From a virus (lineage: Duplodnaviria; Heunggongvirae; Uroviricota; Caudoviricetes), in the IMG/VR virus record IMGVR_UViG_2925914267_000004: 38,194 nt of DNA; one strand, given 5' to 3'. A program made the position numbers and the translations under genes. The notes beneath the pieces are model-generated. The model was not told the DNA's origin and made no database searches. It saw only the letters and a list, made by a program, of their open reading frames with translations. Of this stretch, positions 1 through 8,557 are shown in pieces (the stretch's first letter is position 1; the number at the start of each line of letters is the position of its first letter).

Positions 1-993
1 CTAATCGATGGACAGTTTATGGACACTTTCAGCCAGCGGATTAAAGTTGATCGCGTCCTGTAAGAAGTCCGGCGAAAAATGAGCGTACGTCATTGTTTGC
101 TGAATCGTTGCGTGCCCCAGGATTCGTTGCAACGTAACAATATTTCCGCCATTCATCATAAAGTGTGTGGCAAATGTATGACGCATGACATGCGTAGCCT
201 GCCCCTTCGGCAAATCCGGTTTCACCTCCTGAAGAATCTCCCGGAACTTCAGATAATCAACCTGATACAATAACCCCGTTCGACGGGTTTTAATCAGAGG
301 CACGACCGAATCCGCCACAGGAACCGAACGGGATTTTCCGTTTTTGGTGTTAAAGAACGTCACCCGGTTGCCAACGATATGCTCTCCACGTAGTTCCGAT
401 GCTTCACTCCATCGGGCACCAGTAGAAAGACACAGAATGGCAACACGACGCGCATCCCCCTCCAGTCGCTCAAGAAGCCGTTCAATCTCATCATCAGAAA
501 GAAAGGCCATCTCTGTGTTCTGAACTTTCAGTTTTCGTATACCGCGTACAGGGTTCGCGTTGTGAAAGACCTCAGCTTCAATCAGCACCGTGAACATGGT
601 AGACAGTACACATAAGTCACGATTAATACTGGACGGCATTAATCCGGCCTGTAATTTCTCTGACCGATATTCAAGCATAAATTTTCGCGTCATCTGACTG
701 GCGCGAGGATCTCCCATTTCACGAACAACCTTCCCTAGCCTAACCCTGTAGCTATCCCCGTAAGCCTGATTACGCCCATCAAGCATCCACCACGCATCAA
801 GCAGCTCTGATAATCGCCGCTGATCAGCTGGCTTAGCCTGCCATGGCTTGTCATGAAAGTTCTGTAACACATACTTCTCAAACTCCTGAGCCTTTGATTT
901 CAGGGCAAAGATTTTTCGAATCCGCTTTCCTTCCGCCCCCTGCGGTCTGACATCGACCTGATAACGTCCGTCTTTGAGTTGCTTAATCGACAT
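1..993 (-). CDS. int: Tyrosine integrase (P2 Int-like site-specific recombinase)
   Basis: Track ORF 1..1008 begins at TTG; the in-frame ATG at 993 gives MSIKQLKDGRYQVDVRP. C-terminal tyrosine-recombinase signature HTFATHFMMNGGNIVTLQRILGHATIQQTMTYAHF. First gene at the prophage end, convergent with nothing upstream in the window. Confidence 0.9.
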   Translation of the reverse strand: MSIKQLKDGRYQVDVRPQGAEGKRIRKIFALKSKAQEFEKYVLQNFHDKPWQAKPADQRRLSELLDAWWMLDGRNQAYGDSYRVRLGKVVREMGDPRASQMTRKFMLEYRSEKLQAGLMPSSINRDLCVLSTMFTVLIEAEVFHNANPVRGIRKLKVQNTEMAFLSDDEIERLLERLEGDARRVAILCLSTGARWSEASELRGEHIVGNRVTFFNTKNGKSRSVPVADSVVPLIKTRRTGLLYQVDYLKFREILQEVKPDLPKGQATHVMRHTFATHFMMNGGNIVTLQRILGHATIQQTMTYAHFSPDFLQDAINFNPLAESVHKLSID

Positions 994-1062
994 GATTAGC
1001 CCCTCCAACGGATAAATTAACTAAACACTCCTTGCGATATGTAATTCGCTCAATGTGTAGAG

Positions 1063-1404
1063 TCAGCCAACATTGCGGCCTGATCGGGGTGATTTTTGGG
1101 TAATACCGATTGAAACCTGATCGCCCTCCGACTGAATAGATCCATCAAGAGAGAGAGCCGGAGCAATCTGCCCGGCGACAGGTAGCGTCTTATCTTTTAT
1201 TAGCCACAGCATGTATTTTTCAAAGCGATCGACTTGCAGAACCGCCTCAACGATTTTTGCTCTAGCGTTCTTTTGCCCCGATTCGTAATTCCTTATGGTT
1301 GCCAAAGACAACCCAGTAATATCCGCAAACTGCTTTTGTGTTAACCCTTCCGCCTTACGTATCTGACGTAACTTTTTTGCATAGTCTATTGACAAGATAA
1401 CCAT
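1063..1404 (-). CDS. Immunity repressor, HTH XRE-type (P2 C-like)
   Basis: 113-aa ORF with helix-turn-helix QKQFADITGLSLATIRNYESG, sitting immediately upstream of int and divergent from the early operon, which is the P2 repressor position. Confidence 0.8.
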   Translation of the reverse strand: MVILSIDYAKKLRQIRKAEGLTQKQFADITGLSLATIRNYESGQKNARAKIVEAVLQVDRFEKYMLWLIKDKTLPVAGQIAPALSLDGSIQSEGDQVSIGITQKSPRSGRNVG

Positions 1405-1508: not shown

Positions 1509-2030
1509 ATGCGGGACTTCATTGCCGATAAAGAGTTATCTGACCACCAACCACTTCAGGAAAGTGACGCACTCAGCGGATCCATTGATGCTGCCAACGA
1601 CGACGAACACGAAGAAAACAAGAAAAAGCGTTCCTACAAAAAAGGAGCGACTTTACGGCTGGATGGTCCGATCGCCGGGCTTTGCTCTCTGGAAAAAGGC
1701 GCGGCATATATTGGGCTAACAAAATCTGCACTGCGCGTAGCCATTCATCGCGGTCAAATGCCGGGACACAAGACGCGCACAAACCCGGAAGATGAAAACT
1801 CAGACGGAGTATGGTGGTTTAACGCCAAAGAGTGGGACAAGTTGGCTGATGAGCTACCAGAGCACGAGCCCCCAGAATGGCACAACTGGAAAAGTTACTG
1901 GACGTATGACCGCCAGAAAAGGAAGTTCTCTCCAGCTAATAAAGAAGACTGCCAGACCATTAACGGTAAGCGAGTTTATACAGGCAGAAGCTCAAAACTG
2001 GAGCAACTCAGAAACAACAGAGGCAACTAA
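1509..2030 (+). CDS. Early HTH DNA-binding protein, Cox/excisionase-like (first early gene)
   Basis: ATG at 1509 preceded by AAGAGGA. Internal HTH GAAYIGLTKSALRVAIHRGQMP and excisionase-like WWFNAKEWDKL. At 173 aa it is longer than P2 Cox, so the identity is tentative. Confidence 0.5.
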   Translation: MRDFIADKELSDHQPLQESDALSGSIDAANDDEHEENKKKRSYKKGATLRLDGPIAGLCSLEKGAAYIGLTKSALRVAIHRGQMPGHKTRTNPEDENSDGVWWFNAKEWDKLADELPEHEPPEWHNWKSYWTYDRQKRKFSPANKEDCQTINGKRVYTGRSSKLEQLRNNRGN

Positions 2031-4406: not shown

Positions 4407-4648
4407 CCATTCTGGACTACATCGCCGCCAATCCGAATTGTAGTGGTGGAGAAATCGCCGCAGCACTGAACACCCCAACCACAGCCATTAATGCGGAGTT
4501 ACGCCAACTCTGGCGTGACGGCTTAGTCACCAGAGAAGAGCGCAAAACAGGCGGTCGCTTTTCTTACCAGGTAAACCCGATGCCGTTCGGGTGTGGCAAT
4601 CCACTTACCAACATGTTTAACCAGCTACTGAAGGAAGCCAGAGCATGA
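4403..4648 (+). CDS. Hypothetical small protein, possible winged-helix DNA binder
   Basis: 81-aa ORF whose start overlaps the previous stop. Confidence 0.5.
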   Translation: MTILDYIAANPNCSGGEIAAALNTPTTAINAELRQLWRDGLVTREERKTGGRFSYQVNPMPFGCGNPLTNMFNQLLKEARA

Positions 4649-4944
4649 GCGCCATCAACCACCAGGAATTACGCGAACTGGCGATTGACCTGCAACGAAT
4701 GGCAACGCCTCAAAAATTACTGGCGTTTCGCGCAATGCTCTCGCCGTCTGCTGTGCTGGCGCTGCTGGATGAGCTGGGGCACGCCAGAACCACATCTCTC
4801 GCCATTCGCCTGACGCTCCGTCATGAAATCGAGGATTTCTGCGCGACGTTGGAGGCGCCAGGCGAACCGAAAACGCCGGAAGCAATACAGCAAGAGCTGC
4901 TGCAACGCATTAACAAGGTTTTTGTTTTTTTTCTGAACCGCTAA
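4645..4944 (+). CDS. Hypothetical early protein
   Basis: 99-aa ORF with ATG overlapping the previous stop. Confidence 0.5.
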   Translation: MSAINHQELRELAIDLQRMATPQKLLAFRAMLSPSAVLALLDELGHARTTSLAIRLTLRHEIEDFCATLEAPGEPKTPEAIQQELLQRINKVFVFFLNR

Positions 4945-5266
4945 GAAACCAGAACATGCACACACAAAAAAACCGCTTGCCATGCCGCAATCAGTCAGGT
5001 TACATTTCCGCTGCACCTCACAAAACGGGTGTCGGGTTTCGCAGCCTGCTGACAACCAAAGCGCACAACCGCGCCAGCGGTTTTTTTGTGCGTACCGTAT
5101 CGCCACGTCTTTTTCGCACACGAATTATGGTGGGGCGTATGGGGCCGACTTCGGTCGGGCCGGGTTCTTTGGTTGCCGGTACTGCGAACCTCGTACGTCT
5201 CGCCACCCACAGTTTCGCAGCTCTGGATGGTGAGTTTTCAAAACTTACAACCAAAGAGGCCACACC

Positions 5267-5497
5267 ATGGCAAACCGCAAACAGCACCGCGCTATCGCGG
5301 AGCGTCGTCACATCCAGACTGAAATCAACCGCAGACTTTCCCGCGCATCACGCGTCGCTAAAATCATGCACATCAATATGCTGCATGAACGTAGCTGCGA
5401 ACTTTCAAACCTCTACTCATCCGCTGTTTTCAGCTATCTGGCGGATGATCTGCGCGAGCTTCAGCAGCTCATCCAGCAGCAAAACAAACTCCATTAA
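5267..5497 (+). CDS. Hypothetical small basic protein
   Basis: 76-aa ORF preceded by GAGG; follows an about 320-bp non-coding stretch. Confidence 0.45.
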   Translation: MANRKQHRAIAERRHIQTEINRRLSRASRVAKIMHINMLHERSCELSNLYSSAVFSYLADDLRELQQLIQQQNKLH

Positions 5498-5569
5498 TTC
5501 CTGTTCCGGGCCTTTCCTGCACCTTGCGGCGGGAGGCCTTCGCACATCTGTAACAAGAGGATTGCCGCA

Positions 5570-5935
5570 ATGATTCTCGCCAACGACTTTCTTGAATACC
5601 TGCTCAACACAGAACGTGATCTTGCCGCCCGCGTGCGTGATCGTTATGACATGTACCTGAAATCCCTGCCTGTACCGCGGCTCGCTGACGGAAAGATTGT
5701 TATTGATGGTCGCTACATGATTGACAGCCATGAGGGAAATTACAGGCTTTACCGCATTGAAGGTGGCACCCCGTCCGTTATTGGCATTTACCAGCGCCCA
5801 TCCTCTGCAATCGTCGATGTGATTGCCGACATCATCCGCATCACACATCGCCATGCCGACACAGAAGACACCGTGCTGGAAATTCAGCGGCTGGCTACCG
5901 TCTGCCGCGACACCCTGAATGGCATGACGAAGTAA
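5570..5935 (+). CDS. Hypothetical protein immediately upstream of replication gene A
   Basis: 121-aa ORF in the position of a P2 replication accessory gene; position only. Confidence 0.45.
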   Translation: MILANDFLEYLLNTERDLAARVRDRYDMYLKSLPVPRLADGKIVIDGRYMIDSHEGNYRLYRIEGGTPSVIGIYQRPSSAIVDVIADIIRITHRHADTEDTVLEIQRLATVCRDTLNGMTK

Positions 5936-5941
5936 ATCACT

Positions 5942-8557
5942 ATGACGGCAGAGTACATCAGGGACTGGCAACAACCACGCCACGCAGTGGGGCGTGAAGG
6001 AACGGGGATCCCCGCTCCTGAATCCGCGCTTTCCTCCTGGCTGGATGCCTACCGGGCAGAGAACGAGCGCCGCCAGGAAATGGCTGATGCGGCGTTCTCC
6101 GCCACGCCGCTGGACAACCTGATTAATAAAAGCCTGGACGCACAGGAAAAACAGGACAAAACCATCACACTGGCAGGAGACGCAAGAAAACAGGCACGCG
6201 GCGCGGTGGATGAAGCCATGGCCTCGCTGCGCCTGCTGCCGTCCTATCTGCGCGATCCGCTTATTCGCCACCTCTCCTTCCTGCGCAAAAAACAGGAAGC
6301 CGATCGCCGGAAAGGCAAAAAGAGCTGGCAGGCGGAACGCTATGCACGCGGAACCCTGCGCAAAATATTCGAACGTCTGGAGCGCACCGACAGCCGCTGG
6401 CTGACACCGGGTTATCGCGCCCTTGCCGGACGCGAACGCCTGGACGATTTGCTTTACCTGCCGCAGCTTAACAAGCACCAGATACAGACGCTGGCCACCA
6501 TGACGGCGGCAATGTTCAGCAGCACCTTTGAGACTCTCTGTGATGGTTTCGGTGCCAGAGATGGCGAGCTGACCATGGATGTAACGCTGAAGGCGTATCA
6601 GATGCTGGCCCGCATGGCGTTACACCTGCACGCCATGCCTCCACATTATGACGCACTGACAACAGACAAAGACCGGAGGAACGAACCGGACACGGAACTG
6701 CTGCCGGGCGCAATCCTTCGCCTGACCTGTGCGGACTGGTGGAAACGCAAACTGTGGCTGTTACGTTGTGAGTGGCGGGAAGAACAACTCCGCGCCGCCT
6801 GTCTGGTTTCCAGAAAAACATCACCCTATCTGAGCCAGGACGCGTTAAGCGAGTTTCGCGCACAGCGCGAGAAAACACGCGATTTCCTGAAAAGTTTCAT
6901 GCTGGAAAATGAAGACGGGTTCACGATTGATCTCGAGACGGTGTATTACGCGGGAGTAAGTAACCCGGTTCACCGTAAGGCAGAAATGATGGCCACCATG
7001 AAGGGACTGGAACTTCTGGCCGAAGCCCGTGGCGACAAAGCGGTGTTTCTGACTGTCACCTGCCCGTCAAAATACCACGCCACAACAGAGAACGGTCATC
7101 CGAATCCCAAATGGAACGGGGCCACCATGCGCGACTCCAGCGATTACCTGGTTAACACGTTTTTTGCGGCGGTCCGCAAAAAACTGAACCGCGACGGCCT
7201 GCGCTGGTATGGCATCCGCACGGTGGAGCCTCACCATGACGGCACCGTGCACTGGCATATGATGGTCTTTGCTCATCCGGAAGAAATCGACACCATTGTG
7301 TCCCACACCCGCGATATTGCCATTCAGGAAGACCGCCACGAACTGGGCAATGATATTACTCCGCGCTTTAAGGCGGAGTACGTCGACGGCTCAAAAGGCA
7401 CGCCAACCAGCTACATCGCCACCTACATCGGAAAGAACCTGGACAGCCACGCCGTGGATGGCATCGACCCGAAAACGGGCAAGCCACGCGTTGACCACGA
7501 AACCGGAAAATCAATGGCCGAGAGCGTGGAGCACGCCATCGGCTGGGCGCGCCTTCACCGGGTCCGCCAGTTCCAGTTCTTTGGCATCCCCTCCCGTCAG
7601 GTGTGGCGTGAACTGCGCCGCCTTGCCAGCCAGATGGCACGCAACCCGGAAGGCCCGCAACAGCTGAAGGATGACGCAATGGATGCGGTACTCGCTGCCG
7701 CTGATGCCGGGTGTTTTGCCACCTACATTGAAAAACAGGGTGGCGTGCTTGTTCCACGCAAAGACTACCTGATTCGCACCGCCTACGACCTCGCAGATGA
7801 GCTGAACGATTACGGCGAACAGAGCGTACAGATTTACGGGATCTGGTCGCCGCTCATCGGGGAGTCTTCCCGCGTGTGCACGCATCCGGATAACTGGAAG
7901 CTGGTAAGACGTAAACCGGAAGCGGAAGACAGCGCCCGCGAAAATGGTTTTGACCTTCAGGGCGGCCCTGCCGCCCCTTGGACTCGTGGCAATAACTGTC
8001 CCCGTGTACAGGAAACGGACAACAACGGGACAGAACAGCCGGAAGAACGGCCAGCACCGTGGCCGCAGCTTCCTGACGGCATTGAAGTGAATGAATGGAT
8101 GCGCTCACTGAAACGGCACGAACGCCGGGCGCTGATGCGTTCGCTGCGTGAAAAACCAGTAAATACCAGCAGCGGTGATACACCTGACCGGATGGCAGGG
8201 CATAAACAACCGCCAGACATACCAGTATCACCTGCCACTGAATGGAGAAAATCAGCCGGGGAACCGGGCATAAAACTGAGCGATGAACATATACAGCACC
8301 TGATGAAGACGGGAATGCTGCGTATTAATGGCCATGTACTGGAAGTCACTGACGGCAGACTGACACACCGTCGCGATCAGCGCACAGACAGGAAGGTGAG
8401 CCGCATCTGGGAACGCCTGAGCCGCAATCATGGCATCAGCGCAACTGAAATCAGGTACAACCCGCTCGCACACTACGTGGACATGCTCAGGAATATCGGC
8501 GTGGAGGCTTTACCCGCAGTCACAGAACACAGACATCAGGGAGATGAATCTCAGTGA
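5942..8557 (+). CDS. A: Rolling-circle replication initiator/endonuclease (P2 gpA-like)
   Basis: 871-aa ORF with the HUH-type motif VHWHMMVFAHPEE; the largest early gene, in the canonical A position. Confidence 0.9.
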   Translation: MTAEYIRDWQQPRHAVGREGTGIPAPESALSSWLDAYRAENERRQEMADAAFSATPLDNLINKSLDAQEKQDKTITLAGDARKQARGAVDEAMASLRLLPSYLRDPLIRHLSFLRKKQEADRRKGKKSWQAERYARGTLRKIFERLERTDSRWLTPGYRALAGRERLDDLLYLPQLNKHQIQTLATMTAAMFSSTFETLCDGFGARDGELTMDVTLKAYQMLARMALHLHAMPPHYDALTTDKDRRNEPDTELLPGAILRLTCADWWKRKLWLLRCEWREEQLRAACLVSRKTSPYLSQDALSEFRAQREKTRDFLKSFMLENEDGFTIDLETVYYAGVSNPVHRKAEMMATMKGLELLAEARGDKAVFLTVTCPSKYHATTENGHPNPKWNGATMRDSSDYLVNTFFAAVRKKLNRDGLRWYGIRTVEPHHDGTVHWHMMVFAHPEEIDTIVSHTRDIAIQEDRHELGNDITPRFKAEYVDGSKGTPTSYIATYIGKNLDSHAVDGIDPKTGKPRVDHETGKSMAESVEHAIGWARLHRVRQFQFFGIPSRQVWRELRRLASQMARNPEGPQQLKDDAMDAVLAAADAGCFATYIEKQGGVLVPRKDYLIRTAYDLADELNDYGEQSVQIYGIWSPLIGESSRVCTHPDNWKLVRRKPEAEDSARENGFDLQGGPAAPWTRGNNCPRVQETDNNGTEQPEERPAPWPQLPDGIEVNEWMRSLKRHERRALMRSLREKPVNTSSGDTPDRMAGHKQPPDIPVSPATEWRKSAGEPGIKLSDEHIQHLMKTGMLRINGHVLEVTDGRLTHRRDQRTDRKVSRIWERLSRNHGISATEIRYNPLAHYVDMLRNIGVEALPAVTEHRHQGDESQ

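Follow-up and report, generated by a model that had tools for sequence, protein, structure and literature searches.

Positions 4945-5266 of a 38,194-nucleotide viral DNA (IMG/VR record IMGVR_UViG_2925914267_000004, hereafter the window) lie in the rightward early region of a P2-like Escherichia coli prophage, whose closest phage records are Xuanwuvirus (P88-like Peduoviridae, 89-95% identity). We find that this stretch is most likely a self-contained IsrK-C4 antisense-RNA immunity cassette, which would gate the epsilon-like gene that follows it. A sequence-only reading, made from the letters and their open reading frames (ORFs), had offered a small RNA, an attenuator or a structured regulatory element as possible functions, and this proposal takes a concrete form here: the stretch holds two tandem small-RNA genes of known families, IsrK and C4, together with the boxes that serve as their targets.

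A Rfam scan covering the whole window returned exactly two matches, which are adjacent, both on the plus strand, both full length and both above threshold. The isrK model (RF01394) scores 62.6 bits against a gathering score of 50 (E 3e-11, model positions 1-77 of 77), and the C4 model (RF01695) 81.6 bits against 45 (E 1e-14, model positions 1-87 of 87). Two hairpins that had been picked out by eye fall within these matches. The terminator-like one, ACCGC (5068-5072)-GCCA-GCGGT (5077-5081), was located correctly, with the last T of GCGGT opening a run of seven Ts (5081-5087), as was the one with the UUCG loop, GGCCGAC (5143-5149)-TTCG (5150-5153)-GTCGG (5154-5158). Because both lie inside full-length Rfam matches above curated thresholds, they are beyond chance. 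They are real but do not make up one element: the first is the terminator of IsrK, and the second is the first inner hairpin of C4, in whose model only CCGAC and GUCGG (5145-5149/5154-5158) form the UUCG hairpin, while the flanking Gs belong to neighbouring helices. The functional parts of C4 are the 12-nt loop next to the UUCG hairpin and the 3' junction, not the UUCG loop.

RNA folding and covariance across related phages, the checks suggested at the outset, support both the fold and the pairing of the boxes. A 271-nt stretch folds better than its own shuffles (z -3.2). When the C4 fold was laid over 53 diverse sequences, 96.3% of cells were paired, as opposed to 36-47% in slid controls, and changes on both sides were seen in 16 of the 27 pairs; since the search pattern prescribed hairpin 2 and the UUCG loop, these two parts are uninformative in this test. 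The tRNA-like outer stem and CCA-like tail of the fold also raised a tRNA or tmRNA as a candidate, but ARAGORN finds nothing, and C4 accounts for the shape.

Six boxes link the two RNAs with each other and with the leader of the next gene (Table 1). They are ordered and oriented such that a single C4 molecule could pair, antiparallel, with either target, the a1b1 pair in IsrK or the a2b2 pair downstream of C4. On the plus strand, CAACCAAAG has only two copies in the 38 kb, b1 (5053-5061) and b2 (5248-5256/7), and the three occurrences of the b-box sequence in the window, against 0.57 expected, are all inside the cassette. The 7-mer TTCGCAG is not enriched (7 found, 6.8 expected), and thus only the placement and the covariation of the a-box carry weight. 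We also scanned the C4 segment comprising b' and a' against every 45-nt segment of both strands across the whole 38 kb. Its best non-self duplex partner was a1b1 with -31.6 kcal/mol, the background being -15.6 +/- 3.7, and the duplex with a2b2 reached -28.1 kcal/mol in the same scan. The Shine-Dalgarno sequence AAGAGG, which b2 overlaps, ends 7 nt ahead of the ATG at 5267.

A C4-core pattern retrieved 120 loci from viral contigs, of which 87 distinct instances were analysed. A perfect complement of the C4 loop, at least 8 nt long, lies upstream in 40% and downstream in 53% of these 87 loci, at fixed distances from C4, whereas loops swapped between loci gave 1.4% and 2.0%, respectively. The P88-like cassettes among the relatives, 14 loci including the window with a mean column identity of 91%, concentrate nearly all of their variation in the six boxes. 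For the pairing of C4 with the upstream target (a1:a' plus b1:b'), pairing holds in 99.6% of cells and compensatory changes occur in 10 of 16 pairs, with a1:a' contributing 7 pairs (4 compensatory, 99% of cells paired) and b1:b' contributing 9 (6 compensatory, 100% paired). For the downstream target (a':a2 plus b':b2) the values are 98.7% and 9 of 17, made up of 7 pairs for a':a2 (4 compensatory, 100% paired) and 10 for b':b2 (5 compensatory, 97.9% paired). Sliding one partner by 1-3 columns lowers pairing to 24-52%. All four intermolecular pairings are under selection.

The same alignment bears on the promoter. A search of the upstream part, which had likewise been suggested, gave a sigma-70-like site whose -10 hexamer ends 7 nt ahead of the IsrK match, and its predicted start, at about 5013, would coincide with the first base of IsrK. 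Its hexamers and their spacing are invariant in the 14 cassettes, including one (L052) in which the sequence of the spacer differs. These observations also speak to another alternative, a plain intrinsic terminator or attenuator with incidental hairpins in an early-operon spacer and no trans-acting RNA. The region does lie between operon genes and does contain a canonical terminator at 5067-5087, but such a spacer would account neither for two structured-RNA families being matched over their full length nor for a and b boxes that covary three ways, and it would leave unexplained the conserved internal promoter and the roughly 70% identity in unrelated lambdoid and Stx phages, there ahead of antirepressor or Rha genes; we therefore regard it as extremely improbable.

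The box sequences differ between otherwise nearly identical cassettes, so that each phage has its own RNA specificity. Among the 14 cassettes, a and b boxes assort independently, with at least six a-types and at least eight b-types. One locus (L092) shares both boxes with the window, three (L043, L072, L104) share its b-box and have other a-boxes, and three more (L002, L052, L114) share its a-box and have other b-boxes; P88 itself has CAACUACAG as b-box and UUUCCAC as a-box. In one cassette (L025, IMGVR_UViG_2547132417_000016), a1 is of the type AUUCUCA while its own a' and a2 are of the P88 type, leaving one mismatch and one G-U pair, and this locus looks like a recombinant between specificity types. 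In P1 and P7, heteroimmunity is underlain by box changes between close relatives. No b' loop was common to P88-like and P4-like cassettes in our sample, which consequently does not support direct cross-repression between helper and satellite.

That the stretch holds no convincing coding frame, as the sequence-only reading had it, is borne out by the pattern of variation and has to be qualified for one ORF. In the 14 homologues, the variable columns of 5013-5266 are distributed over the codon positions as 28/30/26, flat in every frame, as compared with 25/23/46 and a clear third-position excess in the neighbouring 76-amino-acid epsilon-like gene. However, the ORF at 4956-5573 nominally matches Pfam PF10554 (Phage_ASH) with 28.8 bits at a cut-off of 26. 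A coding frame found by homology had been named as grounds for abandoning the RNA interpretation; formally there is one, yet the family looks like an artefact of translating an RNA locus. Its match, residues 16-107, corresponds to nucleotides 5001-5277, exactly IsrK, C4 and the leader, and the same domain maps onto isrK, CI RNA and seqC of P4 (L003, 8812-8168, minus strand), as well as onto a P4-like satellite and a spurious N-terminal extension of a Rha ORF (L005, L007).

A protein product, be it an 'Ash family' protein or a P4-cI-like transcriptional repressor, could further appeal to PHROGs labelled 'transcriptional repressor/regulator' (E 1e-10 to 1e-17), to the calls 'ash family protein' or 'transcriptional regulator' in RefSeq and GenBank records of some relatives, and to the frame being open in relatives. 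Set against this are the flat codon positions, the confinement of variation to contiguous boxes that covary with complementary boxes, and the fact that the ORF covers the whole epsilon-like gene out of frame, where substitutions hit the second codon positions of the Ash frame. The Pfam domain coincides with the RNA locus even in P4, where an RNA is described as the immunity factor. In more distant, non-enteric C4 loci C4 is not spanned by any open frame, public annotations of relatives conflict on the strand and on the presence of a gene, and the Ash ORF has no match in NCBIfam. It also showed no similarity to the P4 'cI protein', and the other ORFs of the region (4982-5233, 5086-5322 and those on the minus strand) were dismissed as coding candidates, as none of them matches any family. 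We accordingly hold a protein-coding function for highly improbable: the region appears to be non-coding, and the 'Ash' family, like PHROGs 6928, 995, 821 and 3960 ('transcriptional repressor/regulator') and the RefSeq 'ash family protein', appears to have been built by translating the IsrK-C4 RNA locus.

How the cassette would operate we infer in part from its better-known counterparts. In P1 and P7, the immI region is laid out as a1b1 - c4 antisense RNA - a2b2 - icd - ant (Citron & Schuster 1990, as cited in PMC3632133 and PMC12197685). The C4 RNA of P1 and the CI RNA of P4 are made by processing of a longer transcript, C4 by RNase P at its 5' end, and C4 is about 77-80 nt long. The cassette shares with immI the C4 family, the repetition of two boxes as targets upstream and downstream, the downstream one over a ribosome-binding site, and the coexistence with a protein as primary repressor. 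Unlike in P1 and P7, the guarded gene is epsilon-like, not icd/ant, and the upstream target is an isrK above threshold.

Here, the conserved promoter would start transcription at about 5013, and most transcripts would probably stop at the IsrK terminator (5067-5087), yielding an IsrK of about 75 nt. Transcripts that read through, or that come from an upstream early promoter, would carry the C4 structure (5128-5209), and processing like that in P1 and P4 would excise this structure as a stable RNA of about 80 nt, the spacer at 5088-5127 presumably being the 5' leader removed from the read-through transcript in the process. The b' and a' boxes of C4 would then bind their complements a2 and b2, which lie in the leader of the following gene, and since b2 overlaps the Shine-Dalgarno sequence, this pairing would block translation of the epsilon-like protein. 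Loss of translation, through Rho polarity, or premature termination would probably also lower expression of orf121 and gene A further downstream, though only indirectly. The boxes a1 and b1 in IsrK would provide C4 with a second partner, which could either hold a'b' in cis while both are part of the precursor or compete for C4 in trans as a titrating decoy, the activator role that has been shown for IsrK in Gifsy-1. Control of downstream genes, as anticipated in the sequence-only reading, thus gains support from the covarying pairing with the leader and Shine-Dalgarno sequence of the next gene, but the immediate target would be the epsilon-like gene and not the replication genes. LexA control of the cassette was considered and set aside, as no LexA box was found near it; a single match to CTGT-N8-ACAG lies inside gene A and is at chance level.

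The closest parallel is the immunity region of P4 (PLE promoter - seqA - CI RNA (seqB) - seqC - (kil) - epsilon - ... - alpha), which has the same family order and spacing. On its minus strand, P4 yields the same two Rfam matches in the same order, isrK at 8692-8615 and C4/CI at 8507-8420, preceded by a promoter region TTGCCT-18-TATAGT with the same -35/18-nt/-10 geometry. Its boxes, GUGAGAA/UUCUCAC for a and UUCACAGG/CCUGUGAA for b, differ in sequence from those of the window and are placed alike: IsrK carries the a-box in the loop of its hairpin 2 and the b-box in its linker, C4 carries a' in its junction and b' in the loop of its hairpin 2, and b2 lies on a Shine-Dalgarno sequence about 38 nt after C4. 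Both elements have an epsilon homologue downstream and replication genes at the end of the operon. Several features set the two apart. The window represents a complete P2-like phage with its own C-like repressor and cox-like gene, not a satellite that depends on an RNA alone for immunity; b2 is directly followed by the epsilon homologue here, whereas a 65-amino-acid kil-like ORF comes first in P4; the replication protein is of the gpA (nicking) type rather than an alpha primase; and orf121, compared with P4 orf151, showed no similarity.

Given this likeness, C4 could also act as in P4, pairing with a1b1 and/or a2b2 on nascent transcripts and causing premature termination, either at the IsrK terminator or just after a2, at a conserved hairpin followed by UUUU (about 5199-5239). 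The main output would then be transcriptional silencing of the whole epsilon-orf121-A operon, not a block of epsilon translation. The P4 CI RNA is described as a termination factor acting via seqA and seqC (PMC4825925, PMC3632133), the layout and geometry of the two regions match, replication genes lie downstream in both, and an invariant segment, CTCTGGATGGTGAG and then TTTTC, follows a2. But b2 sits exactly on the Shine-Dalgarno sequence, as a translational block needs, and the terminator scan shows no canonical terminator after a2. We consider silencing by termination possible, if on balance the less probable output; it is compatible with the antisense block of translation that we favour, as translation loss together with Rho would terminate transcription as well. 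As to the invariant segment itself, which lies within 5199-5239, it is able to form pairs with CGCCACC, the 3' arm of the C4 outer stem; this pairing would place a2 in a hairpin loop, in an alternative structure competing with the C4 fold, and 5199-5239 may be a weak terminator like P4 timm.

P1, P7, N15 and lambdoid prophages have been listed as structurally similar to the P4 immunity system (PMC3632133). The best-studied IsrK locus is the isrK - orf45/STnc1160 - anrP region of Salmonella Gifsy-1, where IsrK has its promoter, terminator read-through and a processed downstream RNA, STnc1160, and activates translation of the downstream antirepressor through orf45 (PMC4825925). Binding of IsrK to Hfq and trans-activation of the read-through mRNA are known only for Gifsy-1 (PMC4825925). 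The two loci are alike in that an RNA complementary to IsrK lies in the C4 position, processed and stable in Gifsy-1 and presumably so here; as in Gifsy-1, IsrK would have its own promoter and a leaky terminator, and an antirepressor-type gene would be the regulated output. Unlike in Gifsy-1, no stop of the corresponding frame lies close to the next start codon here, and a2/b2 on the Shine-Dalgarno sequence point to direct antisense repression; moreover, the host phage is lambdoid there and P2-like here.

If the cassette nevertheless worked as a positive switch of the Gifsy-1 kind, the C4-like stretch would act mainly in cis, within a silent read-through mRNA in which a1b1 is paired with a'b' (structure A). 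Short IsrK from the same promoter would open this mRNA in trans, and translation from the AUG at 5127, with a second AUG at 5139, would activate the downstream genes. In line with such a switch, b1 and b' are paired in cis in the minimum free energy fold of the 271-nt precursor, and the two AUGs, both conserved, are 12 nt apart, as are the two orf45 start codons of Gifsy-1 (positions 107 and 119-121). The frame from the conserved AUG 5127, at the 5' edge of C4 and in the position of orf45, stays open for 148 codons up to 5573, running through the epsilon-like gene in another frame and stopping in an ATGA that overlaps the start of orf121. It is likewise open in 13 of the 14 relatives, and just 4% of synonymous recodings of the epsilon-like gene keep it open. 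Against translation of this frame, there is no Shine-Dalgarno-like sequence ahead of 5127, the peptide sequence it would specify shows no conservation, and within the epsilon-like gene its second codon positions take up changes. Furthermore, lacking a stop near the epsilon start, it could not provide orf45-type coupling for epsilon, and a2/b2, which such a switch does not need, covary as strongly as a1/b1. We thus regard a positive switch as unlikely; the open frame is an oddity.

Several points weigh against repression of the epsilon-like gene by C4, or against parts of it. The Rfam model for the P1-type upstream target, c4-a1b1 (RF03163), reaches just 19.9 bits at 5000-5052, below its threshold of 46.7; P4 also stays below it with 44.1 bits, and the upstream target region is better described by isrK than by c4-a1b1. 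The b':b2 duplex covers just four of the six Shine-Dalgarno bases. The direction of control is taken by analogy from P1 and P4, and polarity onto gene A is pure inference. In Gifsy-1, constitutive expression of the C4-like STnc1160 did not relieve the toxicity of IsrK, which acts as an activator there (PMC4825925), so that a repressor role of C4-like RNAs is not universal. Finally, the anti-repressor role of the epsilon-like protein is taken from 30% identity to P4 epsilon, and epsilon alleles that are 97-99% identical (L092, L114, L041) occur beside C repressors with 39-47% identity to that of the window, meaning that epsilon fails to follow the type of repressor, in contrast to what a dedicated anti-repressor might do.

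The presumed regulated gene encodes a 76-amino-acid protein that matches Pfam PF25738 (Derepression) with 31.8 bits at a cut-off of 27, P4 epsilon by BLASTP over 66 amino acids (E 1e-9) and phrog_3688 with an E value of 3e-45. Co-variation of epsilon with C was looked for as support for an anti-repressor role and was not found, and a dedicated role of this kind, suggested by homology, is a tentative one. Exchange of the immunity (C/cox) module is not tied to that of the IsrK-C4-epsilon module. What follows b2 differs between the sampled loci: an epsilon-like gene in P88-like phages, a 64-amino-acid kil-like ORF in P4-like satellites, and a Rha-, Bro- or P22-AR-type antirepressor in lambdoid phages. 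The IsrK-C4 cassettes of lambdoid and Stx-converting phages, with about 70% nucleotide identity to 5006-5260 of the window in about 148 phage records, follow the same box logic. They differ in having Rha, Bro, KilAC, Ant- or P22-AR-type antirepressors downstream, and the frame of the C4 AUG forms an in-frame fusion with the gene behind it at several of these loci.

Within the prophage (Table 1), several small early ORFs lie between the cox-like gene and the cassette, and orf121 and gene A are probably co-transcribed with it; the counterpart of gene A in P88 is annotated as 'replication endonuclease'. In the alignment of the 14 loci, the homology shared with the relatives sets in at about 4963, immediately ahead of the -35 hexamer, and among P88-like phages at least four different, unrelated gene contexts precede the cassette, whose left edge looks like a cargo or recombination hotspot. 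The window, for example, has an Ead/Ea22-like ORF (4645-4944) at this place, while P88 has a lipoprotein/serine-protease gene instead. A 353-amino-acid ORF on the minus strand (5417-6478), antisense to the start of gene A, is very likely spurious and illustrates that long open frames occur by chance in this GC-rich phage DNA.

Table 1. Features of the IsrK-C4 cassette and of its surroundings, in positions of the window
Feature	Position	Strand	Basis or remark
Promoter-like site	4977-5006	+	Promoter scan; -35 TTGCCA (4977-4982), 18-nt spacer, -10 TACATT (5001-5006)
IsrK-type small RNA	5013-5087	+	Rfam RF01394, 62.6 bits; counterpart of P4 seqA region
IsrK hairpin 1	5013-5032	+	
IsrK hairpin 2	5033-5048	+	Followed by single-stranded linker
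Box a1 (UUCGCAG)	5038-5044	+	Loop of IsrK hairpin 2; complementary to a'
Box b1 (CAACCAAAG)	5053-5061	+	IsrK linker; complementary to b' loop
IsrK intrinsic terminator (AACCGC-GCCA-GCGGTT)	5067-5082	+	Terminator scan; U7 tail 5081-5087
IsrK-C4 spacer	5088-5127	+	Position only
C4-type antisense RNA	5123-5210	+	Rfam RF01695, 81.6 bits; counterpart of P4 CI RNA
C4 outer stem, 17 bp	5128-5144 with 5189-5205	+	
C4 UUCG hairpin	5145-5158	+	
C4 second hairpin	5159-5180	+	12-nt loop (5164-5175); followed by single-stranded 3' junction
Box b' (UCUUUGGUUG at 5166-5175)	5165-5175	+	Recognition loop of C4 hairpin 2
Box a' (CUGCGAA)	5182-5188	+	Single-stranded C4 3' junction
C4 tRNA-like 3' tail (CCCA)	5206-5209	+	
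Box a2 (UUCGCAG)	5214-5220	+	Just downstream of C4; complementary to a'
Box b2 (CAACCAAAGA)	5248-5257	+	Complementary to b'; overlaps Shine-Dalgarno AAGAGG (5254-5259)
'Ash' ORF, 205 amino acids	4956-5573	+	Spans the region; overlaps whole epsilon-like gene out of frame
Epsilon-like gene, 76 amino acids	5267-5497	+	ATG 5267; homologue of P4 epsilon helper derepression protein
orf121, 121 amino acids	5570-5935	+	phrog_3237; function unknown
P2 gpA-type replication initiator (gene A), 871 amino acids	5942-8557	+	phrog_91 'nicking at origin of replication'
Integrase	1-1008	-	Left end of the window
C-like (P2-C-like) helix-turn-helix repressor	1063-1404	-	
cox-like gene	1509-2030		Divergent from C-like repressor

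The cassette and its epsilon-like gene are widespread. They are present in 1,154 of 5,426 complete E. coli genomes (21%), including O157:H7 and ST131 strains, almost always on the chromosome and in up to four cassette copies per genome. Public records leave the cassette unannotated or call a protein, labelled 'ash family protein', 'transcriptional regulator' or 'hypothetical protein', and a literature search on RNA regulation in P88 or Xuanwuvirus found no description. Both RNA families are curated ones, the logic of the switch has been known from P1/P7 and P4 since the 1990s, and no new mechanism is involved; the occurrence of the two RNAs in P88-like P2-type phages, between the early genes and the epsilon-gpA block, would be a new setting.

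One can ask what such a cassette might contribute to a phage that already has a C repressor. As a tentative and rather doubtful proposal, IsrK-C4 may give P88-like (Xuanwuvirus) phages a second, RNA-based layer of immunity like immI. Acting independently of C, the a and b box types would together work as a combinatorial 'barcode' and decide which P2-like prophages and P4-like satellites residing in one host are cross-immune or cross-induced; the guarded epsilon homologue would, on this view, make these P2-like prophages inducible. P2 is classically non-inducible. A P88 prophage is recoverable after mitomycin C (PMC5285337). Once the locus is recognised, PF10554, several PHROGs and the RefSeq 'ash family protein' also become suspect, each being probably the translation of an RNA gene, and the cassettes present a set of orthogonal RNA-RNA specificities provided by nature, all on a scaffold that hardly varies. 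For P88-like prophages, the IsrK-C4 switch provides a testable handle on the gating of the epsilon-like gene, and perhaps of the replication genes.

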